Assembly (NCBI RefSeq): GCF_055900595.2
Contig: NZ_CM148325.1
Direction: 5' to 3' (one strand)
DNA: 64,000 nt
Positions 8,243-44,826 of the stretch are shown here, in pieces; position 1 is the stretch's first letter, and each line of letters begins with the position of its first letter. The notes under the pieces were generated by a model that was not told the origin of the DNA, searched no databases, and saw only the letters and a program-made list of their open reading frames with translations. Both the position numbers and the translations under genes were made by a program.

Positions 8243-9820
8243 ATGACGGAAAACATTCATAAGCATCGCATCCTCATTCTGGACTTCGGTTCTCAGTACA
8301 CCCAACTGGTTGCGCGCCGCGTGCGTGAACTGGGTGTTTACTGCGAACTGTGGGCGTGGGATGTGACAGAAGCACAAATTCGTGACTTCAATCCAAGCGG
8401 CATTATTCTTTCCGGCGGCCCGGAAAGCACCACCGAAGAAAACAGCCCGCGTGCGCCGCAGTATGTCTTTGAAGCAGGCGTACCGGTATTCGGCGTTTGC
8501 TATGGTATGCAGACCATGGCAATGCAGTTGGGTGGTCATGTTGAAGCCTCTAACGAACGTGAATTTGGCTATGCGCAGGTTGAAGTCGTAAACGACAGCG
8601 CACTGGTTCGCGGTATCGAAGATGCGCTGACAGCAGACGGTAAACCTCTGCTCGATGTCTGGATGAGCCATGGCGATAAAGTTACCGCTATCCCGTCCGA
8701 CTTCATCACCGTAGCCAGCACCGAAAGCTGCCCGTTCGCCATCATGGCAAATGAAGAAAAACGCTTCTATGGCGTACAGTTCCACCCGGAAGTGACTCAT
8801 ACCCGCCAGGGGATGCGCATGCTGGAGCGTTTTGTGCGTGATATCTGCCAGTGTGAAGCCCTGTGGACGCCAGCGAAAATTATCGACGATGCAGTAGCCC
8901 GTATCCGCGAGCAGGTAGGCGACGATAAAGTGATCCTCGGCCTCTCTGGTGGCGTGGATTCCTCCGTGACTGCAATGCTGCTGCACCGCGCAATCGGCAA
9001 AAACCTGACTTGCGTATTCGTTGACAACGGCCTGCTGCGTCTCAACGAAGCAGAGCAGGTTCTGGATATGTTTGGCGATCACTTTGGTCTGAACATTGTT
9101 CACGTTCCGGCAGAAGATCGCTTCTTGTCAGCGCTGGCTGGTGAAAACGATCCGGAAGCAAAACGTAAAATCATCGGTCGCGTTTTCGTTGAAGTATTCG
9201 ATGAAGAAGCGCTGAAACTGGAAGATGTGAAGTGGCTGGCGCAGGGTACTATCTACCCTGATGTTATCGAATCTGCCGCGTCTGCAACCGGTAAAGCTCA
9301 CGTCATCAAATCTCACCATAACGTGGGCGGCCTGCCGAAAGAGATGAAGATGGGCCTGGTTGAACCGCTGAAAGAGCTGTTCAAAGACGAAGTGCGTAAA
9401 ATTGGTCTGGAGCTGGGCCTGCCGTACGACATGCTGTACCGTCACCCGTTCCCGGGACCAGGCCTTGGCGTTCGTGTGCTGGGCGAAGTGAAGAAAGAGT
9501 ACTGCGACCTGCTGCGCCGTGCTGATGCCATCTTCATTGAAGAACTGCGTAAAGCGGACCTGTACGACAAAGTTAGCCAGGCGTTTACCGTGTTCCTGCC
9601 GGTACGTTCTGTTGGCGTAATGGGCGATGGTCGTAAATACGACTGGGTTGTGTCTCTGCGTGCCGTCGAAACCATCGACTTTATGACCGCACACTGGGCG
9701 CATCTGCCGTACGATTTCCTTGGTCGCGTTTCCAACCGCATTATCAATGAAGTGAACGGTATTTCCCGCGTGGTGTATGACATCAGCGGCAAGCCACCGG
9801 CGACTATTGAGTGGGAATGA
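8243..9820 (+). CDS. guaA: GMP synthase (glutamine-hydrolysing)
   Basis: 525-aa [43 protein letters not shown] ... PPATIEWE; class I glutamine amidotransferase plus ATP-pyrophosphatase regions. Confidence 0.95.
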
Positions 9821-9822
9821 TT
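9809..9822. repeat. attL core (direct repeat GAGTGGGAATGATT overlapping the guaA stop codon)
   Basis: Exact 14-bp copy also at 44813-44826; the left copy supplies the last guaA codons and TGA stop. Confidence 0.55.
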
Positions 9823-9866
9823 CGTTAACGCTTTTCTGCGATTAACACCCATCGAAAATAATACTA

Positions 9867-9895
9867 ACCGCCTTGATTTACAGGCGGTTTTTTTA
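9867..9895 (+). terminator. Rho-independent terminator downstream of guaA (prophage-supplied)
   Basis: Hairpin accgcc-ttgatttac-aggcggt followed by a run of Ts. Confidence 0.6.
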
Positions 9896-9938
9896 TTTTC
9901 AGTCATTAATAACCATCAGTTACTATCTGTTGTTTTTA

Positions 9939-10026
9939 GCGGTAAATTTGACGGTATAAGAAATTTTTAGTCAGTGTTACACTCCATTTTACCGTCAGGT
10001 TTTAGCCAGCGGTGACGGTAAAATTT
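9939..10026. promoter_or_regulatory. Cluster of GACGGTA(A/T)A motifs: putative integrase arm-type binding sites
   Basis: gcggtaaa 9939-9946, gacggtata 9950-9958, inverted tttaccgtc 9988-9996, gacggtaaa 10014-10022, immediately upstream of int; the same motif occurs twice in the right arm (44730-44750). Confidence 0.4.
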
Positions 10027-10030
10027 CACA

Positions 10031-11245
10031 ATGGAGAGTGACCCGATGCTGACCGATACCAAACTGAAAAACCTCAAAGCGCGGGAAAAACTTTATAAAG
10101 TTGCAGACCGTGATGGGCTGTATGTAACCGTATCTCCCAAGGGATTGGTGACGTTTCGCTATGACTATCGAATCAATGGTCGTCGTGAAACGTTAACTAT
10201 TGGTCGCTATGGTGACGGTATTTCTCTGGCGCAGGCGCGCGAAAAATTAGTGGAAGCCAAAAAACGCGTAAATGCAGGAATATCGCCCGCTGGAGAGAAG
10301 CGTGACGGTAAAACAAAGCGAAAAGAAGAAAAGACACTCCACGATTTTACCGTCAGCTACATGAAACACACCCGGCTGGCGGACAGCACAAGGGCGATGA
10401 AGCAAAGCATTATCGACAGAGACATCACGCCAGTATGGGGGCGCAAGCTGCTGTCAGAGATAACCCCCTCTCTCCTACGTGAGTATTGCGACAAGATAAA
10501 AGCGCGTGGTGCGCCAGCGACGGCGATTCAGGTTCGCAATATCGTTAGTGCGGTATTTAAGTTCGCCGCGCTTCACGGCGACTATTACCCCAATCCTGCC
10601 GAAGAGGTTTTACCGGCTTCAATTGCGACATTCGAAGCGCGCGACAGGGCGCTCAAGCCAGAGGAGATAGGCTGGTTTTTCAATCAGCTTGAACAAACGG
10701 GTACATTACCCACCATCAAGCTGGCCATTAAATTGGTTTTATTAACGATGGTACGTAAAAGTGAACTGCTGAACGCTCCGTGGGGTGAGGTTAATTTTAA
10801 TGCCTGCCTTTGGACGATTGACGCCAGCCGGATGAAGGGATCACGGGATCATAATGTTTATCTGTCCCGGCAGGCACAGGACATTCTGATTGCCCTGAAA
10901 ATGTGCGCAGGAAGCAGTGATTGGGTTTTGCCTTCATGCAATCAGTCGTCGCATAAGACCATGTCGGCGGCGACCTTAAACCGGGTCATTAATCTTACGG
11001 TTAAGCAGGCGCAGGAACGGGGGATCAGGCTGGCGTCGTTTTCCGTTCACGATATGCGCCGAACGGCATCGACGTTATTGCATGAGGCGGGGTTTAATTC
11101 CGACTGGATAGAAAAATGCCTCGCGCACGAGGAAAGAAGCGTCAGAGCCGTTTATAACAAAGCGGAATACGCAGAGCAGCGCCGTGATATGTTGCAGCAG
11201 TGGGCGGATATGGTTGATGGGTGGATCAAGCAATACCGCCCGTAA
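10031..11245 (+). CDS. int: Tyrosine recombinase, P4-type phage integrase
   Basis: N-terminal arm-binding region DGLYVTVSPKGLVTFRYDYRINGRRETLTIGRYG and C-terminal catalytic HDMRRT ... AVYNKAEY (HxxR ... Y) typical of P4/CP4-57 integrases; true start may be the Met at about 10046. Confidence 0.9.
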   Translation: MESDPMLTDTKLKNLKAREKLYKVADRDGLYVTVSPKGLVTFRYDYRINGRRETLTIGRYGDGISLAQAREKLVEAKKRVNAGISPAGEKRDGKTKRKEEKTLHDFTVSYMKHTRLADSTRAMKQSIIDRDITPVWGRKLLSEITPSLLREYCDKIKARGAPATAIQVRNIVSAVFKFAALHGDYYPNPAEEVLPASIATFEARDRALKPEEIGWFFNQLEQTGTLPTIKLAIKLVLLTMVRKSELLNAPWGEVNFNACLWTIDASRMKGSRDHNVYLSRQAQDILIALKMCAGSSDWVLPSCNQSSHKTMSAATLNRVINLTVKQAQERGIRLASFSVHDMRRTASTLLHEAGFNSDWIEKCLAHEERSVRAVYNKAEYAEQRRDMLQQWADMVDGWIKQYRP

Positions 11246-11248
11246 GTA

Positions 11249-11503
11249 CTATGCGGGGATCTTGGTACCAGAGCGCTTTGGGACTTTGGCCAGATTTTTC
11301 TGTACCGCGTTATCAATATGGTGATGGTTATTTTCCTGCCGTGCTTTGAGCCAGCGTTCCACTTCCTCTTTGTCCCACGCGACGGCGCGCTTCGTTAGCG
11401 CAAAACGTTTGGGAAACAGGCCTTTTTGCTCCAACGCATAAATCGTACTTTCAGAGAGTGGCACCATCTGTAAAAGCACGTTTTTTCTAATGGCAATTTT
11501 CAT
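11249..11503 (-). CDS. alpA: AlpA/Vis-family excisionase-type transcriptional regulator
   Basis: Motif LSESTIYALEQKGLFPKRFALTKRAVAWDKEEVERWL matches the AlpA family; adjacent to int. Confidence 0.7.
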   Translation of the reverse strand: MKIAIRKNVLLQMVPLSESTIYALEQKGLFPKRFALTKRAVAWDKEEVERWLKARQENNHHHIDNAVQKNLAKVPKRSGTKIPA

Positions 11504-12901: not shown

Positions 12902-15559
12902 TTAACGTTGAAAAACCCAACACTTCACCGTCGCCGGGCGGCGCGGTGCGGCTGGGTAACGGCGGTTAAATTCAGCGTTGATGCCGCTGTTAACCGTTCT
13001 GACTTCAATAAACTTGTGGGTACGGCTGGTTTTTAGCACTCGCTTCAAATCGCTGATCGGCGGGATCTGCTGGCGGCGCTCGGTAGCCAGTTGAATAAAG
13101 TGGTTAAGGTTAACGGCGATAAGCTGTTCATCGCGCGAGTGGTTGAGCTGTGGTTCGTCGTCGCCATCGAGGAAGTCGAAAATATCCCAGAACTCCTGCA
13201 CCAGAGGATGGTCGGCGCTGATGGCCTGTTGGCGCTCCAGACTGAGGCGGATAAACATTTCTCTGGTCGCCTGTAGCTGCTCTTCCGTGACCGGAATAAC
13301 CAGCGCCAGCGCGTCGAGCAGCGCCATAAGCTGGGCGTGGTTTTTAATGATGCGGATATGGCGAATATCTGGGTGGGAGTGAAGTTGCTGCTCGTATAGC
13401 GGGATCTGACGGTTAACGCACTCCAGCACGGCCTGTTCCGCCAGCGCTGCCTTCAGCATAAAGCCGGAAAGCTGTTCTACCGGCAGGCGTTCGAGCTGCT
13501 CGGCAGCGACCTTGGTCTGAGTATTCTGGCCGCTGCGGTCGGTGTACAGGTGAATAATACGTTCCAGCACCGGGTTAGAGGCGCTAACATCGGCGTTTTG
13601 CGCAATCACAATCGCGCCCCGGAACGGCGGTTCATAGGTCTCGTTGCCGCTGTTACGCAGACCGCGAGAACGCACCGACCGCCCGTTATAGGCGGTTTTC
13701 AGCTCTTCCCAATCAAAGCCACGCTGCTTTGCCCCCTCCTGATTACGGTCACCCTCGATCAGCACCACCGGCATATTTGCTACCTGCGCAAAGTTGCGCG
13801 CGCGGGCGGCCAGCGTTGATTTAGACGGATCGAAACCTTCATAGTCGCGTCGGCCCAACAGTTTCCAGAGGAACTCTATCAGCGTGGTTTTACCGCTGCC
13901 GGGTTCGCCAACGATTTCCAGAAATGGAAAGCTCTTGTGCTTGTCGCGGATCTGTTCGGCAAACATCGTCCCAAACCAGTACGCCAGCGCCACAAACCCC
14001 TTTGCGCCAAACGCCTGCCAGAGTAGCTGGGGCCACTGGCTGTCCATCTGTTTTAAATTGTCGTTCAGCGTCAGGCTGACCGACTGGTTCAGGCTTTTAA
14101 GGCTAAGTTTGCCCATGTCGAAGAAGTCTTCTTCGTTGAGTGTGTACAGCCGACCATCGCGAACGGCCAGATCGTTGAACACGTAAGCGCGGTATTCTTT
14201 GCTGTAGCCGATAAAATCAGTGGTCTGGACAGTTTTGATTTTGGGAAGCTGCTTGAGCAGCAACTTATCTAACTGCTGACTGGTGCCGGTGAAGATGCCG
14301 CCCTGCGCGATATGCAGCAGGCGCTTTTTGAATTCTGAGCCGCTGGAAAGTTGGGAGCCGGTGAAGGTGTTTTTTATCGGTGGAGTGTCGTCGGGGAAGT
14401 TAATGCGAAAGTAATACCAGCTTTCGTCGGTAATGGTGTTGGCCTGATAGTAGAGGGCGGTCGGGTAGCAGTTGGCTATCTCAACAACGGCGGCTGACTC
14501 CTGTAGCGCTTTATGTTTGGCTTCTTCTTCGTCCAGCTCCTCTTTGCCGTTATACATCACGTTATCAAAGGCACGCATATAACGGTCAATATCCAGCTTG
14601 AACCAGTACAGGCGGCTGTCGAACTCGAAGTGAAACTCTTTGCGTTCGGTACGCTCATGCATCAGTAATGCTTTGGCATTCGGATTGGGAGCGATCAACA
14701 GTGAACCGTAGTAACGATATTTTTTAATCAGATCCGGGTTTAGCCGATCGCGCTGGTGCAAATCGTTCCAGTCCAGCTTGGTGCGGGAATAGGGCGTTTG
14801 TGCGGCGGTGGAAAGCCAGCCGTCGTCGCGGCTGCGTTTTACCCAGCGGCGGGTGTAATTCATGCCCGCTTTGTCGTTATCCAGCGCCCAGACCAGTAAA
14901 GGACGCTTTTTATCCACGAACAGCGCGGCCAGTTGGCTTAACGCCTGCGCCGGATAGTTGTTACAGGTCATCAGGGAAACGGCGGCAATGCCGTGGTGGT
15001 GCAGGGCGATAGCGTCAAAAATGCCCTCAACCAGCCAGATCTCCTGCTGTTCTTCCAGCTTAAGCGTTGGCAATTGCCACCATAGCCCGCTGTAAGCGCC
15101 GTGAAAATTGGCTTTGCGATCGCCGAAACGCTGTGGGCGGTCAACGATCCGCTCCCACCACACGCCGTCAGCCAGCGGGAAACGCACAGTGGCCGAGCCG
15201 AGATCGCGCCGTGCGTCATAGTAGTTCTCTTGAGCGTAACAGTTACGGAGCAGCGAAAGGTCAAAGCCGCGCATCTCGCGCAGGTAGGCATCGGCGGCGG
15301 CCTGTGGGTTTTCCGGGGTTGGGGGATATCTGTCTGACCAGCTTTCAAATAGATCCGGGTACACCTCTTTGATATGGATTTCGGCATTGCATTTATTCAG
15401 GCGACCGCAGCGCAGTACCCACGGGCTGATGGCGTAGGTGTACAGCTCTTTTTTCTGGCAGTCCGGGCAGACGCCCTGCCGCAGCCAGTCGCCCTGTTCT
15501 TTAAAGGAAAAATCGGCTAGCAGTCGCCGCGTAATTTCCTGATGAAGTTGTGGTTGCAT
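12902..15559 (-). CDS. Replicative primase-helicase (P4 alpha / HP1 Rep-like)
   Basis: N-terminal zinc-binding motif CPDCQKK ... CGRLNKC, TOPRIM-like EGIFDAIALHHHG and LDNDKAG (DxD), and Walker A GEPGSGKTTL. Confidence 0.75.
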   Translation of the reverse strand: MQPQLHQEITRRLLADFSFKEQGDWLRQGVCPDCQKKELYTYAISPWVLRCGRLNKCNAEIHIKEVYPDLFESWSDRYPPTPENPQAAADAYLREMRGFDLSLLRNCYAQENYYDARRDLGSATVRFPLADGVWWERIVDRPQRFGDRKANFHGAYSGLWWQLPTLKLEEQQEIWLVEGIFDAIALHHHGIAAVSLMTCNNYPAQALSQLAALFVDKKRPLLVWALDNDKAGMNYTRRWVKRSRDDGWLSTAAQTPYSRTKLDWNDLHQRDRLNPDLIKKYRYYGSLLIAPNPNAKALLMHERTERKEFHFEFDSRLYWFKLDIDRYMRAFDNVMYNGKEELDEEEAKHKALQESAAVVEIANCYPTALYYQANTITDESWYYFRINFPDDTPPIKNTFTGSQLSSGSEFKKRLLHIAQGGIFTGTSQQLDKLLLKQLPKIKTVQTTDFIGYSKEYRAYVFNDLAVRDGRLYTLNEEDFFDMGKLSLKSLNQSVSLTLNDNLKQMDSQWPQLLWQAFGAKGFVALAYWFGTMFAEQIRDKHKSFPFLEIVGEPGSGKTTLIEFLWKLLGRRDYEGFDPSKSTLAARARNFAQVANMPVVLIEGDRNQEGAKQRGFDWEELKTAYNGRSVRSRGLRNSGNETYEPPFRGAIVIAQNADVSASNPVLERIIHLYTDRSGQNTQTKVAAEQLERLPVEQLSGFMLKAALAEQAVLECVNRQIPLYEQQLHSHPDIRHIRIIKNHAQLMALLDALALVIPVTEEQLQATREMFIRLSLERQQAISADHPLVQEFWDIFDFLDGDDEPQLNHSRDEQLIAVNLNHFIQLATERRQQIPPISDLKRVLKTSRTHKFIEVRTVNSGINAEFNRRYPAAPRRPATVKCWVFQR

Positions 15560-15647: not shown

Positions 15648-15896
15648 TTACGCGATTTTCTGCTTTTGCAGAAATTGCCCGCGTGTGGATAGCGGTATGT
15701 GTATCTTAGGATTCGGGCAACCGCTGGGTACTACCGTTCCCATCACGGTCTCCATCGCGATAAATGAAAACGAACAGTTAACGTTCTTGCACTGGTAATA
15801 GAGCTTACGTACCAGCGGTGACATATATTCGCTGCTGCGAATTATCGCCTTACCGTCGCAGTGTGGGCATTTCATCATGTCCGATCTCCTTACCAC
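15648..15896 (-). CDS. ogr: Ogr/Delta-family zinc-finger late transcription activator
   Basis: CPHCDGKA ... YYQCKNVNCSFSF matches the Ogr/Delta C-x2-C ... C-x4-C zinc finger. Confidence 0.8.
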   Translation of the reverse strand: MVRRSDMMKCPHCDGKAIIRSSEYMSPLVRKLYYQCKNVNCSFSFIAMETVMGTVVPSGCPNPKIHIPLSTRGQFLQKQKIA

Positions 15897-16201: not shown

Positions 16202-16540
16202 ATGAAAGAATTTGGCATCCGTTTGAAGGAAGAACGTATCCGACTTGGCCTTGATCAAGACGGCTTTGGACAACTTGGGGGCGTGAAGAAAAACGCACAA
16301 AGTAACTATGAGAATGGACTGCGCAAGCCGGACAGTGACTATCTTGCTGGCATAGCGGCAGCGGGAGTTGATGTTCTGTATGTTCTAACAGGCAACCGCA
16401 CGCCTGTGGCTACGTTGTCCAGTAAAGAGAGTGTGTTGGTGGAGAACTATCGTTCTGCTACGCCAGAACACCAGTCCACCCTTGACACGGTTAGCGCTGC
16501 GCTTGCGCAACCGGGAGTAGGGAAAGCAGCTAAGGGATAA
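16202..16540 (+). CDS. HTH XRE/Cro-C1-type regulator, probable prophage immunity repressor
   Basis: N-terminal HTH FGIRLKEERIRLGLDQDGFGQLGGVKKNAQSNYENGLRKP; divergent from the early/late regulators; GC content like the phage backbone. Confidence 0.65.
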   Translation: MKEFGIRLKEERIRLGLDQDGFGQLGGVKKNAQSNYENGLRKPDSDYLAGIAAAGVDVLYVLTGNRTPVATLSSKESVLVENYRSATPEHQSTLDTVSAALAQPGVGKAAKG

Positions 16541-16580: not shown

Positions 16581-17153
16581 ATGAAGTTGAATAATCTGGT
16601 TGCTCTTTACAGGAACATGACAGAGCAAAAATTGGATAGGGTTAAATTCCCATACAGACACAATAATTTACATTTTGATGTATTTTTCTTTATTGATGGA
16701 AAACCGTTTGAGCTTCTTTTCGGAGCATTAGGCGCTAATCTTTGCTTTCGTCTAAAAGTCGAGAAGGGATTCGTCATAAATCCTAATCTGGGAAGTGAGA
16801 CTTATAAAGAATTATGCAAGGCGCTAGGTTTGAAATATGACCCTGCCAATCCATTTAGAACAAGTAAGTTTTTTGAAGATTTTGATGGGAAAATCCCTAC
16901 ATCGGTTACTGTTAAGAATAAGGCAAAATATACTGATATTGCTGTGCATGTCAGGGATGTTGAAGAAGCAGACAGAATATATTTCTGTGGATGGAAAAAC
17001 AACAATGAAGAAAAGAGTCATGTTACTGAAGATAATTTAAAGAAAACGAAAGAGTTTTTAGGGTATCAGGCTTTTCTTGTTTGTAAGGAAAAGAATATTA
17101 GCAGTAGATGGACTGATTTAGAAAATAAAGCAAAAGATTTTTATTTACCATAG
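16581..17153 (+). CDS. Hypothetical protein (cassette gene 1), no recognisable motif
   Basis: 190-aa ORF with RBS ggagg upstream, AT-rich codon usage, 40 bp downstream of the HTH gene. Confidence 0.5.
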   Translation: MKLNNLVALYRNMTEQKLDRVKFPYRHNNLHFDVFFFIDGKPFELLFGALGANLCFRLKVEKGFVINPNLGSETYKELCKALGLKYDPANPFRTSKFFEDFDGKIPTSVTVKNKAKYTDIAVHVRDVEEADRIYFCGWKNNNEEKSHVTEDNLKKTKEFLGYQAFLVCKEKNISSRWTDLENKAKDFYLP

Positions 17154-17167
17154 GATTGTGAGGTTAT

Positions 17168-18316
17168 ATGTCTGATATTTCATTAGGGTGCGTGGTTGTT
17201 CATAGGTTGATAAAAGAGCAACATAAAGATTTCGATCACTCAAAACCATATAGTCGCCGTGATACGGTTCTTGACCGAAATAATGAAATCGTAATTAAAC
17301 TAGTGTCCAGTATAGCCGCATTGTATGGTAAAAAATCTAATAGCTCGCATTATGGTATATTTAATTTAGATGAAACACGCAGGGGGCCTTTTCCAGCGGA
17401 ATTTGATAAATATCGGAATGATACATCCAAGAAGTTAGACGATGAATTGTTTATAGGATTATCAAAAAATGTTATGCATCAGTTATATATTGAGGCAAAG
17501 GATCGACCTGCTGCATCAGGAGGATTACTTCTTTTTGCTGATTATATCAGTAAATCCGTGCGTTACTTTCTTATTGCAATGATTAAGCAAAAGGAAGGTA
17601 TAGTTATTAGTGATAAATTAGAGCCAAAGGAGTTAGAGCATCTTGATCTGGCAAAACTAAACCAGGCGGCACGAATAAACTATGATTTGTATGATAAATA
17701 TATTTCCGCTGATGAGAATGAAAGACAGGATGTTAATTATTTAAGTTTTGTTAGTCCCAGTTCTAACCAGACAACTTCAGGGTATTTCATTACTGCCTTA
17801 GGTTGTGATAAAGGTAATACATCAACTAAAGCTACGAGTAATTTAATTAATGAATCTTTTAACTTCTTCAGAAATCATCAAGAATTAAAGGATAATGCCC
17901 GTAAATTTAAAAATGAAATTATTGAGTATTTATTCGATTGTTCTGAAAATAACATTTCAGCTAAGCTCTCTGTTGTTAGTGAGATGGCGGCGAAGCATAT
18001 GGTTAATTTAGAAGATGACATTAAAGATAAATTGTCAGAAGAATTATATGCTCATTTGAATAGTGAAAGTATTCGTGTGCCTGTGGAATTTAGGGTAAGC
18101 AAATCAGTAGTTAAGAAAAACAGAAATATTAAATATACAAGTGATAATGTTAATTTTGAGTTTAAATCTAGTTTACTAGGCAATACTCTTGATAATGAGA
18201 TATGCTATAATAAGAAAACTGGACATTTAACTTTTACTCGGATTACTCCTGAGAAAAAAAGTGAAATAGCTCAATTGCTTGATGAGTTAATAAAAGAAAG
18301 AAATAGCGAAAAATAA
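17168..18316 (+). CDS. NdpA/YejK-like nucleoid-associated-protein family member (cassette gene 2)
   Basis: N-terminal VVVHRLIKEQH and SGGLLLFADYISKSVRYFLIAMIK align by eye with YejK IALHQLIKRDE and [24 protein letters not shown] (sequence recalled from memory); further colinear similarity towards the C-terminus. Confidence 0.5.
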   Translation: MSDISLGCVVVHRLIKEQHKDFDHSKPYSRRDTVLDRNNEIVIKLVSSIAALYGKKSNSSHYGIFNLDETRRGPFPAEFDKYRNDTSKKLDDELFIGLSKNVMHQLYIEAKDRPAASGGLLLFADYISKSVRYFLIAMIKQKEGIVISDKLEPKELEHLDLAKLNQAARINYDLYDKYISADENERQDVNYLSFVSPSSNQTTSGYFITALGCDKGNTSTKATSNLINESFNFFRNHQELKDNARKFKNEIIEYLFDCSENNISAKLSVVSEMAAKHMVNLEDDIKDKLSEELYAHLNSESIRVPVEFRVSKSVVKKNRNIKYTSDNVNFEFKSSLLGNTLDNEICYNKKTGHLTFTRITPEKKSEIAQLLDELIKERNSEK

Positions 18317-18318
18317 GG

Positions 18319-18957
18319 TTGCTTAATATGTCATGTTTTGAAACGGTTGTTGAGCTTTTCAGATATGTAGGGCGTCCTAAATTTGATGCTATTAATAATC
18401 GTTTTTCAGCAACTATTTCTTATGATGCTCATATATATGAACTCTTAGTTTCTTTGCAACCTCATACAGCGTGGGGAGAAATTGAAGAGATTGTCATTGA
18501 TGATGTGGATATAGATGTTGATGATAGCCTTCCCGCTAAAGGAACATCAATAACACTGACAATCTCTATATCAACTGGAGCTAGTGAGTCATTTTTTATC
18601 GATATTAAAGATCTAATTCAAAAGTCTCCGATGTTAAATAGAGGTATTTTAAGAAAGTCTTTTTACTTGGTTGAGGAAGATTTTTATTTTAATGAAGGAA
18701 TGGTTGAGGGATTAGCAAAAATACCAGAACTATCTGTTTTAAAGAATCTTTGTGATTTTATTTTATGTCTATCAAAAGTTGCACACTACAGCAATAGTAA
18801 AAGTGATGATGTATGCCATAAGTTAGTTTTCTTGAAAAATACTAATGCTAAGTCATTACCTTTAATTATTGAAACTAATGTTGATTATTCACTTCTTTTA
18901 ACAGGTATTAAGGATTTAAAAATCATCGAATCTTTTTCTGATGAAAAAAAGCTATAA
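18319..18957 (+). CDS. Hypothetical protein (cassette gene 3)
   Basis: 212-aa ORF starting 2 bp after gene 2; acidic stretch IDDVDIDVDD; no recognisable motif. Confidence 0.5.
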   Translation: MLNMSCFETVVELFRYVGRPKFDAINNRFSATISYDAHIYELLVSLQPHTAWGEIEEIVIDDVDIDVDDSLPAKGTSITLTISISTGASESFFIDIKDLIQKSPMLNRGILRKSFYLVEEDFYFNEGMVEGLAKIPELSVLKNLCDFILCLSKVAHYSNSKSDDVCHKLVFLKNTNAKSLPLIIETNVDYSLLLTGIKDLKIIESFSDEKKL

Positions 18958-19001
18958 CGGATGATAATTATTTTGAGCGAAAAGGGATTTTCATTAATAC
19001 G

Positions 19002-19583
19002 GTGGTCGATTTTCTTGAATCAATCGATGTAAAGAAACAGTTTCATTTTTTATTCTGTGAGTGGGATGAATTTCTAAAACTATACCATAATAACCTCGGT
19101 GTATATCTTAGTGGTTTTTCATTTCATAAAGTAAGAAAGGAAGTGGCAGAGGCAGAAGCTAATTTAGCTGAGCGTTTTTCAAAAATAATGTCAGACATGA
19201 TAGCTAAGCTTTTAGGTATTCCTGTTTCTTTGGTTGCTACTTTTGGCATGATAAAATTAAATACCCTGCCGGAAATGTTAGTGGTTTTTTTAGGTGTATT
19301 GCTCACGTCGATAATTATGTTTTTTATTGTAAGAAGTCAATACACACAGTTTAGGATGATTTGTGATGCTAAAGATATTATATTTTCCCCATTAGTGAAA
19401 AAATCTGTAGGTTATACAGAAGATTTGAAAAAATTAGTATGCAATGCAAAGGATAATTTAGACAAAAATCAGGTCATGTTAAATCGTTACCTTCTTTTCT
19501 TTCAATGCTTATGCTGGATTCCGACAGCCTTAGGTGGTGGAATGATCTTAATGGCTATTATGGTTCATTTAGGATTACTATAA
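19002..19583 (+). CDS. Predicted membrane protein with two hydrophobic helices (cassette gene 4), putative effector
   Basis: Hydrophobic segments LLGIPVSLVATFGMI ... LVVFLGVLLTSIIMFFIV and LLFFQCLCWIPTALGGGMILMAIMVHLGL; 3' end overlaps the convergent gpD stop by 6 nt. Confidence 0.5.
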   Translation: MVDFLESIDVKKQFHFLFCEWDEFLKLYHNNLGVYLSGFSFHKVRKEVAEAEANLAERFSKIMSDMIAKLLGIPVSLVATFGMIKLNTLPEMLVVFLGVLLTSIIMFFIVRSQYTQFRMICDAKDIIFSPLVKKSVGYTEDLKKLVCNAKDNLDKNQVMLNRYLLFFQCLCWIPTALGGGMILMAIMVHLGLL

Positions 19584-27427: not shown

Positions 27428-28122
27428 CCTGATGAGTAGTCGTAACCCATAACCGCCTGCACCTCCGTCAACGCTTCAACGGCGGCAATATGCTGCTGGG
27501 CAGCGGCGAACAGGCGCATATCGTGCGCCATTGTTTCGGTTTCAAACCGGGCGGCGATCTCGTTGGTTAGTTCAATCAGGTTGTGATTTTTGGTCTGCCA
27601 CATTAAGCCTGCCGGTATTTGTTTAGCCACGCCCATTTTGGTGAGCGAGAGCTGCTGGATGCGGCTGTTAGCGTCGCTGTGGAAATGGTGATTATCGATG
27701 ATGATGTAGTCAGCGGTGATTCGATCGCGATACTGCTTTATTTCTGCCACCTTTGCCTGTCGGGCTTTTTCGATATCGGGCTGCCAGCGTTTGCCGTCCC
27801 AACGGACAAAGGCGTTATCGGGCTTCAGCAGAGTGACGTTATCCGGCAATGGCCCCAGATGATGAAGCTGTACCTCACTGCCCGCATCGGTATCAAACGC
27901 GGTTTTACCGCGATGATCTTCTACCGCAAGCCATGTTTCTCCGTTGAATGTCAGGGCAAAGCCGCTCTGGCATTCGGGCGGTTCGATAGTGGTACAGCAT
28001 TCCGGTAAGCCGGTGTTGGGGGCGATATAGGCGTCGCTGACGCCGATAAATTCCTGAGTATCTGCCGCGTAGTTAAAGATGCGCAGGGTTTGCGGTTCGT
28101 CGGAAAATGCGAATGTGCTCAT
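27415..28122 (-). CDS. G: Tail fibre assembly protein (P2 gpG/Tfa-like)
   Basis: 235-aa ORF directly downstream of the tail fibre gene; composition typical of Tfa chaperones. Confidence 0.7.
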
Positions 28123-29780
28123 GCCAGCCTCACGATATAGTTGAAAGCGATATTTTTAACGGTGTTTTCGGTGTTCCCGGCGGCATTCACCGTAATAGTG
28201 TGGCTGTGGGAACCCAAGGCGATAGCGTGGTTATGCGCGCCGATAGTCAGCGAATGGGTATGAGCGCCGATGGCTACTGTGTGAGTATGGACACCGTCTG
28301 TACTGGTTCTGAATTTGTAGTTATCCCAGTCTGTGTCTGCAGACCCCTGATTATTACGGGTACTGTCGAAGTAACCGTGACGTCCACCGCTGGCTTCACC
28401 CCATCCGCTGTCGTGGTTGTGAGCACCGGCTGACGCTGTTGATTTTGTCCCGTAGTCAAACGCGCTGGTATTTTTAGTACCCAAATCGGTGGAACTGGCA
28501 GTTTTAGTGCCTAAATCTGTGTTAGTGGCGCTGGCTGTGTGACTATGAGATTTAACGCCATCCTGTTCCTGAGACAGTATCGAGCGTCCGCTGGCGGGTT
28601 TCCCCTTGATTGTCCAGCCGCGCATATCCGGGATTACCCCAGAGGGGTAAGCGATTGCCAGTTTAGGGTAGGCGGTTTTATTGAAGGACTGACCGACCAT
28701 CAGGGCGTAGCCGCTGGGGATTGCATCGGATGACCACGGTATCGGCGTGCCGACCGGACAGGTTTCCGCCGCCAGCGCTTTGTCTACTGCCGCTTTCACC
28801 GCCTTGGGCGTGGCGGCCAGTGTTTCGCTGGTGCTGTCGATGGCGCTACTAAGCTGGACAATCCCTTTACGCGCCGTGGTGGCATCCTGCGCGGTATATT
28901 TGCCATTAGCCATATCGTAGGCCGCTTTCACCGCCTTGGGCGTGGCGGCCAGTGTTTCGCTGGTGCTGTCGATGGCGCTACTAAGCTGGACAATCCCTTT
29001 ACGCGCCGTGGTGGCATCCTGAGCGGTATATTTGCCATTAGCCATATCGTAGGCCGCTTTCACCGCCTTGGGCGTGGCGGCCAGCGTTTCGCTGATACTG
29101 TCGATGGAGCTACTAAGCTGGACAATCCCTTTACGTGAGGTGGTGGCATCCAGTGCGGTATATTTTCCATTAGCCAGATCGTAGGCTGCTTTCACTGCTT
29201 TGGGCGTGGCGGCCAGTGTTTCGCTGATGCTGTTGGTCGCACTGCTTAATTGAGTAAAACCTTTGGCAGTTAACGTGGCGTCAGGATGGTTACGGGACTG
29301 CACGTGGCACGTCAGGCTTTCATCCACATACTGTCTTGTTGCCAGCACCACGGCAGGGTCGATTTTCAGCTCCACGTTTTCCGTATGGGAGACAATCAGC
29401 ACCATGCGGATAATCTGCGTGCGGCCCGAACCTTCGATTAACTGCGGCTTGTAGGTTGGCGGGCAGTTGCCGACGGCAATCAGCCGGTCGTGCTCGTCGT
29501 ACAGGCCAATTTCTCTGATCCACCATCCGCCTACATCCTCCGGTAGTACCTGTTCGGCAATAATCTGGTTGGGGTTGTTAGGGTCAATACTGAGCGTATT
29601 CAGCGGCGCACGTCGGCGTTCGTTGATTAACCGGGTTTGGCCAGTCTCCGGTGTTGGCAGGTTACCGTTTCCGTCGCCCACGGCCATTTGCGTCAGATGA
29701 AGAGGTGAACCCTGTGCGGTGGCGGTCGCCAGCGCGGATTCGCCGGTAGTGGTTAATAGCGTGAAATAGGTAGCGCTCAT
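28119..29780 (-). CDS. H: Tail fibre protein (P2 gpH-like)
   Basis: Conserved N-terminus [51 protein letters not shown]; variable C-terminal half with 44-aa tandem repeats and His-rich tip. Confidence 0.8.
28780..29290. repeat. About 3.8 tandem copies of a 132-bp (44-aa) repeat within tail fibre gene H
   Basis: atccctttac recurs at 28861, 28993 and 29125; protein repeat [44 protein letters not shown]. Confidence 0.8.
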
Positions 29781-44295: not shown

Positions 44296-44580
44296 AAAAG
44301 GTAACCTCAGTAATTAGCAGTAAAAATAATGCTTATTCTATTGTTTATAAAAGAGAAATTTGGTTACCCCTAAAAGGTAATCTGAGGTAACCCAAAAGGT
44401 AACCTGTTTTATATTTTCATATAAATCATGATGTTACAAATTAGAAGACATCACTATTATAAAAGGTAACCTGATTACGCTTTGGTTACCAAAAGATTAC
44501 CTTTCTCTGTTTTTGAAAAATCCTTTTTATTCATTAAGTTATTTTGATTTTTCGTTGCAGGTTACTAAGGTTACCTTTTT
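44296..44580. repeat. Iteron-like array of about 9 copies of AAAAGGTAACC (both orientations)
   Basis: Copies at about 44296, 44362, 44373, 44385, 44395, 44461, 44484, 44491 and 44569, in an AT-rich non-coding region between the cos-proximal end and attR. Confidence 0.5.
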
Positions 44581-44728: not shown

Positions 44729-44755
44729 GGACGGTAAAACTGACGGTAAATTGGG
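44729..44755. promoter_or_regulatory. Tandem GACGGTAAA motifs: putative integrase arm-type sites (right arm)
   Basis: gacggtaaa at 44730-44738 and 44742-44750, the same motif as beside int at the left end. Confidence 0.4.
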
Positions 44756-44812
44756 TTGTGGGTCTCGATTTAGATTAGTAAAATCAAGTGATTAAGTCGA
44801 CTGTAGATAATC

Positions 44813-44826
44813 GAGTGGGAATGATT
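44813..44826. repeat. attR core (direct repeat GAGTGGGAATGATT)
   Basis: Exact copy of 9809-9822; followed by what looks like the displaced native guaA terminator. Confidence 0.55.

Follow-up and report, generated by a model that had tools for sequence, protein, structure and literature searches.

A repeated TGACGGTAW motif as the probable arm-type site of a guaA-targeting prophage integrase, with additional copies inside the integrase gene

The stretch of DNA analysed here (64,000 nucleotides, hereafter the window) carries a P2-like prophage of ~35 kb, which is inserted at the 3' end of guaA and bounded by two copies of the attachment core. We found that a short repeated motif, TGACGGTA(A/T), with the full form TGACGGTAW, clusters at both ends of this prophage and is very probably the arm-type recognition sequence of its heterobivalent tyrosine integrase, an enzyme of the P4/KplE1 type. 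At the level of sequence, this assignment is supported by the domain content of the integrase, the placement of the motif on two arms, phylogenetic footprinting, a fixed geometry and the parallel with characterised systems. The arrangement is classical, with the twist that three extra copies are located in the integrase's own gene (Table 1). A search of the literature for binding or mutational results on the integrase of any guaA-targeting relative found none.

The attachment core GAGTGGGAATGATT is a 14-bp direct repeat whose two copies are spaced 35,004 bp apart. The last codons of guaA (encoding IEWE and the stop) fall within the core and are restored by the prophage. Across the more than 5,400 complete E. 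coli genomes that lack the element, homology to the left flank ends at position 9822 and homology to the right flank restarts at 44810-44813. Both junctions are thus defined exactly, and an unoccupied site is the usual state; only three genomes carry the element itself. The att assignment in the preliminary description was therefore right. For the guaA-type core attgagtgggaatgatt at the guaA stop codon, 14 of 17 core bases are identical on both junctions. The prophage content is P2-like and includes terminase, portal, gpD, an Ogr/Delta zinc finger, a Toprim primase and a Dam-type methylase.

Table 1. Predicted and observed features of the attachment region, with coordinates in the window
Feature	Position	Strand	Sequence	Basis or remark
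guaA (GMP synthase)	8243..9820	+		ORF list; named guaA in E. coli matches
attL core	9809..9822	.	GAGTGGGAATGATT	direct repeat; host homology ends at 9822
Phage-borne intrinsic terminator	9866..9899	+		terminator scan
P'1, decayed predicted arm-type copy	9938..9946	+	AGCGGTAAA	12 bp before P'2
P'2, predicted arm-type site	9949..9958	+	TGACGGTATA	exact motif; conserved column block in relatives
P'3, predicted arm-type site, inverted	9988..9997	-	TGACGGTAAA on minus strand	inverted copy conserved in relatives
P'4, predicted arm-type site	10013..10022	+	TGACGGTAAA	24 bp 5' of the int ATG
int, tyrosine integrase	10046..11245	+		Pfam domains; aligned with 33 homologues
In-ORF copy	10213..10222	+	TGACGGTATT (TGACGGTAT at 10213)	codons D-G-I, arm-binding domain
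In-ORF copy	10303..10312	+	TGACGGTAAA (TGACGGTAA at 10303)	codons R-D-G-K, inter-domain linker
In-ORF copy, inverted	10346..10355	-	TGACGGTAAA (TGACGGTAA at 10347-10355)	codons F-T-V-S
AlpA-family protein, candidate recombination directionality factor	11249..11503	-		PF05930, E=7e-13
P1, predicted arm-type site	44729..44738	+	GGACGGTAAA	exact motif; -83 from core
P2, predicted arm-type site	44741..44750	+	TGACGGTAAA	12 bp after P1; -71 from core
IHF-consensus site	44782..44794	+	AATCAAGTGATTA	between P-arm pair and core, -31
attR core	44813..44826	.	GAGTGGGAATGATT	direct repeat; host homology restarts at 44810-44813

Exact copies of GACGGTAWA occur nine times in the window (9950+, 9988-, 10014+, 10304+, 10346-, 44730+, 44742+, 3875- and 8636+), against 0.63 expected, and nine copies were reached in none of 100 shuffles. 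Seven of them are found at the prophage ends, two on the P arm, three upstream of int and two within int; an eighth GACGGTA near the prophage ends, GACGGTATT at 10214, is also within int. The matches at 3875- and 8636+ were rejected as members of the system: they are located in host genes and are present in prophage-free genomes, and they are probably due to chance, given a background of 15 GACGGTA copies in the 63 kb outside the arms. When only the heptamer GACGGTA is counted, 8 of the 23 copies in the window fall inside the 698 bp of the att arms (Poisson P~1e-11). In a motif-blind k-mer count of the non-coding arms, GACGGTA and the k-mers overlapping it likewise ranked first among the repeats, with 5 observed versus 0.13 expected.

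The preliminary description had counted four motif copies upstream of int. Copies in both orientations are indeed present there, but only three are exact and the fourth, at 9938-9946, is the decayed form AGCGGTAAA. The position of this P'1 copy holds a perfect ACGGTA in the aligned sequences of five lineages (L005, L010, L011, L014 and L026, including those from Edwardsiella, Morganella and Oceanimonas), which argues for a degenerate homologue rather than noise. The tandem pair described at 44730-44750, just left of the attR core, proved exact, with the two copies 12 bp apart and 83 and 71 bp from the core. That first picture omitted the three in-ORF copies, the IHF-like site and the probable operator role of the motif, all of which are considered below.

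Joining the two ends gives a reconstructed attP with motif copies at -83 and -71, the core, and then copies at +129 (degenerate), +141, +181 (inverted) and +205, followed by those inside int at +405, +495 and +539 (inverted). The flanking of the core by motifs on both sides, as had been proposed for the excised form, can be seen directly in the intact attP sites of free phages (epsilon15, phiV10, Tyrion and the IMG/VR contig L043), in each of which the same core is flanked by the motif left and right. An exact match to the IHF consensus WATCAANNNNTTR is located at 44782-44794, between the core and the P-arm pair, and is one of only two such matches in the 64-kb window; a match with 0-1 mismatch is found at the same -31 position in 9 of 11 other P arms scanned. 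The P' side gave no match to the IHF consensus.

A different repeat family, (A)AAAGGTAACC, occupies AT-rich non-coding DNA at 44297-44578, 235-515 bp left of the attR core. In this segment the repeat is present 6 times with at most one mismatch, the copies facing either way, alongside several half copies (GGTTACC); the whole window has 12 matches to the repeat versus 2.7 expected. The cluster was considered as the true P arm and rejected, because related attP sites lack it but have the TGACGGTAW pair at a fixed distance from the core. In the epsilon15-type attP there is no room for such a cluster, and a coding gene reaches nearly to the P-arm pair. The repeats may belong to the packaging site or, as iterons, to an origin used by the P4-alpha-like primase.

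A scan of one genome per species gave 33 Int relatives (53-88% amino acid identity) from gamma-, beta- and alpha-proteobacteria. Their hosts include Edwardsiella, Morganella, Citrobacter, Tolumonas, Oceanimonas, Gallibacterium, Chromobacterium, Cupriavidus, Rhodocyclaceae, Aromatoleum, Caulobacter, Phenylobacterium and Nitrospirillum, among others, and nearly all of these integrase genes directly follow a guaA that ends in TIEWE and a stop codon. E. coli prophages with 63-73% similar int genes were considered as extra lineages and rejected, being epsilon15-like and hence not independent. In the spacer from the guaA stop to the int start, ACGGTA is the sole 6-mer that occurs at least twice at 29 of 29 loci examined from these three classes, with 102 copies in total. 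Alignments show the motif copies as conserved islands, the remaining sequence upstream of int having diverged. A frequency matrix built from 83 non-coding instances in 23 lineages reads TGACGGTAW with information-free flanks, which is the signature of a putative short protein-binding site.

The P arms of the relatives could be compared by way of core sequences taken from IMG/VR independently of the motif. Every phage-arm left flank defined by these cores has a pair of ACGGTA copies 12 bp apart, at -78/-66 from ATTGAG, and this is so in at least 7 P-arm lineages with otherwise unrelated flanking sequence. The attP test set was defined solely by the presence of an int homologue right of the core, and the attL controls by guaA on the left: the ACGGTA pair was present in 7 of 7 distinct attP left flanks and in none of 8 attL controls. 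The elements compared, which comprise the P2-like myovirus, podoviruses and unrelated elements, have only the int/alpA module in common, and the motif tracks the integrase clade. One variant was noted in lineage L095 (IMGVR_UViG_3300007747_000006), whose attP, ~235 bp 5' of int, is epsilon15-like but has the P-arm pair ~20-30 bp from the core instead of the normal ~70-80 bp; the stretch for the IHF-like site is missing. This variant may be a natural deletion.

The same target, the 3' end of guaA, is used by the epsilon15-like phages (Uetakevirus: epsilon15, phiV10, SPN1S, Tyrion and vB_EcoP_ZX5). The core attgagtgggaatgatt has been proven by PCR and sequencing for ZX5 and has been reported for phiV10 and epsilon15 (PMC9782041). 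The Int encoded in the window is 60-62% identical to the epsilon15-like integrases over 98% of the length, and the motif offsets of these phages (-82, +140, +170 inverted, +375 and +465) match those of the window. Likewise, both the epsilon15-like phages and the element described here have a phage-borne terminator after the core. In the epsilon15 record (NC_004775), GTGACGGTAT is annotated four times as an integrase protein_bind feature, with two of the copies in the int ORF; as far as can be told, this annotation is itself a sequence-based prediction. There are some differences. Base 9 of the motif is mostly A in the window and T in the epsilon15-like phages, and the element described here carries P'4 directly before int and, within the ORF, a third copy that is exact, the place of the latter in the Uetakeviruses being occupied by TACCGAC. 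The epsilon15-like phages are podoviruses, unrelated to the P2-like myovirus of the window with its terminase, portal, gpD, Ogr/Delta and P4-alpha-like primase. The motif had thus been annotated for epsilon15 already; what is added here is its presence, along with that integrase module, on a P2-like phage unrelated to epsilon15.

The int gene of the window starts with the ATG at 10046 (MLTDTKLKNLK), according to the homologue alignment, and is preceded by a ribosome-binding site GGAGAG at 10034-10039. Its product contains the three Pfam domains Arm-DNA-bind_3, Phage_int_M and the catalytic Phage_integrase. Arm-DNA-bind_3 (PF13356) covers residues 7-91 with E=6.1e-21, above the curated cut-off. 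This N-terminal domain has homologues in the PDB (3JU0 and 3JTZ) and is strongly conserved over the 33-homologue alignment.

An experimentally dissected parallel is provided by KplE1 (CPS-53) of E. coli K-12, whose IntS has 30% identity to the Int of the window and the same domains (PF13356, PF22022 and PF00589). The KplE1 arms contain GGGTAAAA five times, a sequence related to CGGTAAAA of the window. At its attR, two of the copies are spaced 12 bp, as in the window, and are located ~79 and 67 bp before the core (-79/-67); three more (one direct, two inverted) are located directly 5' of the intS ATG; the integrase gene is transcribed away from attL, again as in the window. The same geometry in KplE1 suggests that it is common to integrases with the Arm-DNA-bind_3 domain. 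Together with the 29 of 29 spacers that contain the motif, this geometry agrees with the original reading of the motif as a putative arm-type site. KplE1 differs in its target, which is the tRNA gene argW and not a protein gene such as guaA, and in its intS ORF, where a scan found no motif copies. Moreover, binding and regulation have been shown by experiment for KplE1, whereas in the present case we infer Int binding, the role of IHF, autoregulation and the function of the in-ORF copies from sequence.

The main alternative is that it is not Int but the AlpA-family excision factor encoded at 11249-11503 that binds the motif. Factors of the Xis, Cox, Apl and TorI types typically have tandem direct repeats close to a core, in approximate helical phase, and the P-arm pair is a direct repeat spaced 12 bp, as are the TorI sites I1 and I2. 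An AlpA-family gene also accompanies int in most of the guaA-targeting lineages, so co-occurrence cannot separate the two proteins. The distribution of the motif points the other way. It is present on both arms, in both orientations, in 7-9 copies over ~640 bp, whereas characterised excision-factor sites are direct repeats on one arm, the five TorI sites of KplE1 being all on attL. KplE1 has a related motif and an identical geometry and yet an unrelated excision factor: TorI, which shows no detectable similarity to the AlpA-like protein of the window in sequence comparison, binds GTTCG, GATCG or GTCCG sites that differ from the IntS motif (PMC2951348). The excision factors being unrelated, the protein shared by the two systems is Int, and the motif and its geometry go with the Int domain.

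A second parallel, with ICEMlSymR7A, leads to the same distinction. The IntS of this element uses five arm sites, all needed for integration, with the consensus TGKTGGTATC (PMC11963761, citing Verdonk et al. 2019). That consensus resembles TGACGGTAT, with the common pattern TG..GGTAT. The excision factor of the element, RdfS, is encoded far from int, stimulates intS transcription (PMC11963761), and has binding sites that showed no consensus motif. ICEMlSymR7A is an integrative and conjugative element and not a phage, and its target is a tRNA gene; it encodes a P4-type integrase next to attL, as does the prophage, and the resemblance noted is one of motifs. Binding of the prophage motif by the AlpA-family excision factor is accordingly improbable.

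The case of lambda follows the same logic in a different guise. Lambda Int is a heterobivalent integrase with arm-type sites on both sides of the core (P1, P2 and P'1-P'3) whose sequence is unlike that of the core, and IHF bends the DNA between arm and core, as proposed for the prophage of the window. The N-terminal domain of lambda Int belongs to a different family and recognizes a different motif. The lambda attP spans ~240 bp, and the int ORF is not known to contain any sites. The lambda int gene is transcribed towards attP from PI/PL and is not known to be autoregulated through the arm sites.

With the motif taken as the Int arm-type site, the attP of the excised circle would read P1-P2 (-83/-71), IHF site (-31), core, terminator, P'1-P'4 (+129 to +214) and int. 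The Arm-DNA-bind_3 N-terminal domain of Int (approximately residues 1-90) would bind the TGACGGTAW 9-mers, and the central and catalytic domains the core. An IHF-type bend at -31 would bring the protomers bound on the P arm to the core, with the P' cluster probably reaching it in a similar way from the other side. The resulting intasome is expected to recombine attP with the guaA 3' end, and the same machinery, together with the AlpA-like factor, would recombine attL with attR.

The int gene adjoins attL and is transcribed away from the core. The terminator at 9866-9899 is predicted to replace the guaA terminator and to shield int from read-through; an equivalent hairpin is present in epsilon15 and in the Edwardsiella relative, and is annotated in epsilon15 and phiV10. 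About 145 bp separate the terminator from the int ATG, and P'1-P'4 are all located in this interval. As int is transcribed away from the core and insulated by the phage terminator, its promoter must lie among P'1-P'4. Int that occupies these sites would then probably repress its own gene, following the KplE1 and P4 pattern. In KplE1, the IntS arm-type site P'1 is located on the -10 box TAaAAa, and both IntS and TorI repress PintS (PMC2951348). By analogy, the upstream motif copies probably also act as int operators. P'4 includes a -10-like TAAAAT without a -35, and a promoter scan found no sigma-70 promoter matching at 9/12 or better upstream of int in the window or in epsilon15. The Edwardsiella relative, whose Int is 88% identical, has a 10/12 match, TTGACG-16-AATAAT, that overlaps P'1/P'2. 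Since this match stands alone beside the empty scans of the window and epsilon15, autoregulation can only be inferred.

It could also be argued that the copies upstream of int take no part in recombination and serve as operators through which a protein other than Int, either an immunity repressor or some host factor, controls int. They cover the only possible location of the int promoter (9900-10045), and the promoter-like site of the Edwardsiella relative overlaps P'1/P'2. The motif is found, however, also at the other end of the prophage, 35 kb away and at a fixed distance from the core, where a pure int operator is not needed, and a scan of the window found no copy in the phage early control region at ~15.9-16.2 kb. 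It is common, furthermore, to the P2-like myovirus, the epsilon15-like podoviruses and unrelated beta- and alpha-proteobacterial elements with differing immunity repressors. Even the repressors of epsilon15 and phiV10 are only 42% identical (PMC9782041). A host factor that was kept from Caulobacter to E. coli and had sites only beside this Int clade is implausible. We consider a purely regulatory role of the upstream copies very unlikely, and an arm-type site that serves also as an Int operator remains the preferred reading.

The three motif copies inside int encode parts of the protein, and the one at 10213 codes for the conserved residues DGI of the arm-binding domain. They could therefore be by-products of Asp-Gly and Thr-Val coding and not DNA sites; another GACGGTA-type match, presumably due to chance, is indeed present in guaA. 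Codon usage argues against this. In 20 gamma-lineage int genes, there are 94 columns with an invariant amino acid and degenerate codons, and in these the commonest codon is shared by 59% of the genes on average. Only 4 of the 94 columns have a single codon in all 20 genes (D59 GAC, G60 GGT, G90 GGT and T104 ACC), and all four fall in the three in-ORF motif copies. The DRDG motif, equally conserved in the same genes, freely uses GAT or GAC and GGG, GGC, GGT or GGA.

At the 10213 copy, all 20 of the gamma-lineage genes read GAC GGT, whereas other D and G codons vary. The linker copy at 10303 retains CGT GAC GGT A wherever RDG occurs, and the linker amino acids are wholly different in lineages without the motif. 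At the 10346 copy, ACC GTC is invariant in all lineages that have T-V. In the linker, the hexamer ACGGTA is kept in two genes even though the amino acid has changed, namely in L031 (Tyr codon) and L010 (Asn codon). In the alpha-proteobacterial lineages L022, L024, L025 and L033, the motif is located on another D-G pair, at int +67, where the conserved DRDG codons read GAC GGT AT(G/T), with GGT against the GC-rich usage of these genes; the gamma and beta lineages have no motif copy at this place. That these copies are mere by-products of coding thus has very little probability.

The frozen codons and the retention of the motif across amino acid changes argue that the in-ORF copies have been selected as DNA. 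The in-ORF sites are found, depending on the alpha-, beta- or gamma-proteobacterial lineage, at +67, at +305 or at +172/+262/+305, and these shifts suggest repeated gain; the copies thus seem to have arisen more than once. The homologues of the 10213 and 10303 copies are among those annotated as integrase-binding in epsilon15. We give about even odds to the more specific proposal that the copies at 10213, 10303 and 10347 are functional sites for int's own product, kept by selection on the DNA. They would most likely bind Int, either as an extended P' arm or in reinforced autoregulation, as a roadblock or loop anchor. If these sites are functional, then the P' arm would be longer than 500 bp, or Int would tighten the autoregulation of int in one of the latter two ways. 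An extension to +545 would be exceptional for a P' arm in its length, so these copies may serve some other function. Should the proposal be true, the recognition motif of Int would dictate D-G in the arm-binding domain and R-D-G and T-V in the linker of the same protein. The codon-frozen copies in int would be a clear natural example of coding sequence that doubles as a protein-binding site.

The resulting map of the attachment site, with nine predicted arm sites, the IHF site, the core and the terminator, is testable. The integrase module is common to the P2-like prophage, the epsilon15-like phages and many uncharacterised elements at guaA ends in three proteobacterial classes. Elements of this kind can be delimited in genomes by searching for TGACGGTAW in its fixed arrangement, with two copies spaced 12 bp at ~80 bp from the core.

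Several other features of the prophage were noted. P2-type structural genes are combined in it with a P4-alpha-like Toprim primase (12902-15559) and an Ogr/Delta zinc-finger activator (15648-15896), and the integrase module is otherwise seen on podoviruses, which makes the prophage a clear mosaic. Directly right of the attL core (9825-9847) there is a pair of GTTAAC and ATTAAC, 17 bp apart; the Edwardsiella relative has two GTTAAC copies, and the more distant relatives have none. The pair represents candidate sites for the AlpA-like excision factor or a candidate outer core-type site.

A block of four cargo genes (16581-19583) is flanked by the HTH repressor-like gene (16202-16540) on one side and the gpD tail gene on the other. 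One of its products is a DUF6037 protein and another a nucleoid-associated protein of 37 kDa (NA37/YejK-like), while the remaining two ORFs have no Pfam match; none of the four genes matched a PADLOC defence model. Finally, the tail-fibre gene at 28119-29780 contains three tandem copies of a 132-bp unit (28789-29264) with 98% and 87% identity to the reference copy, which match the Pfam Phage_fiber_2 repeats.
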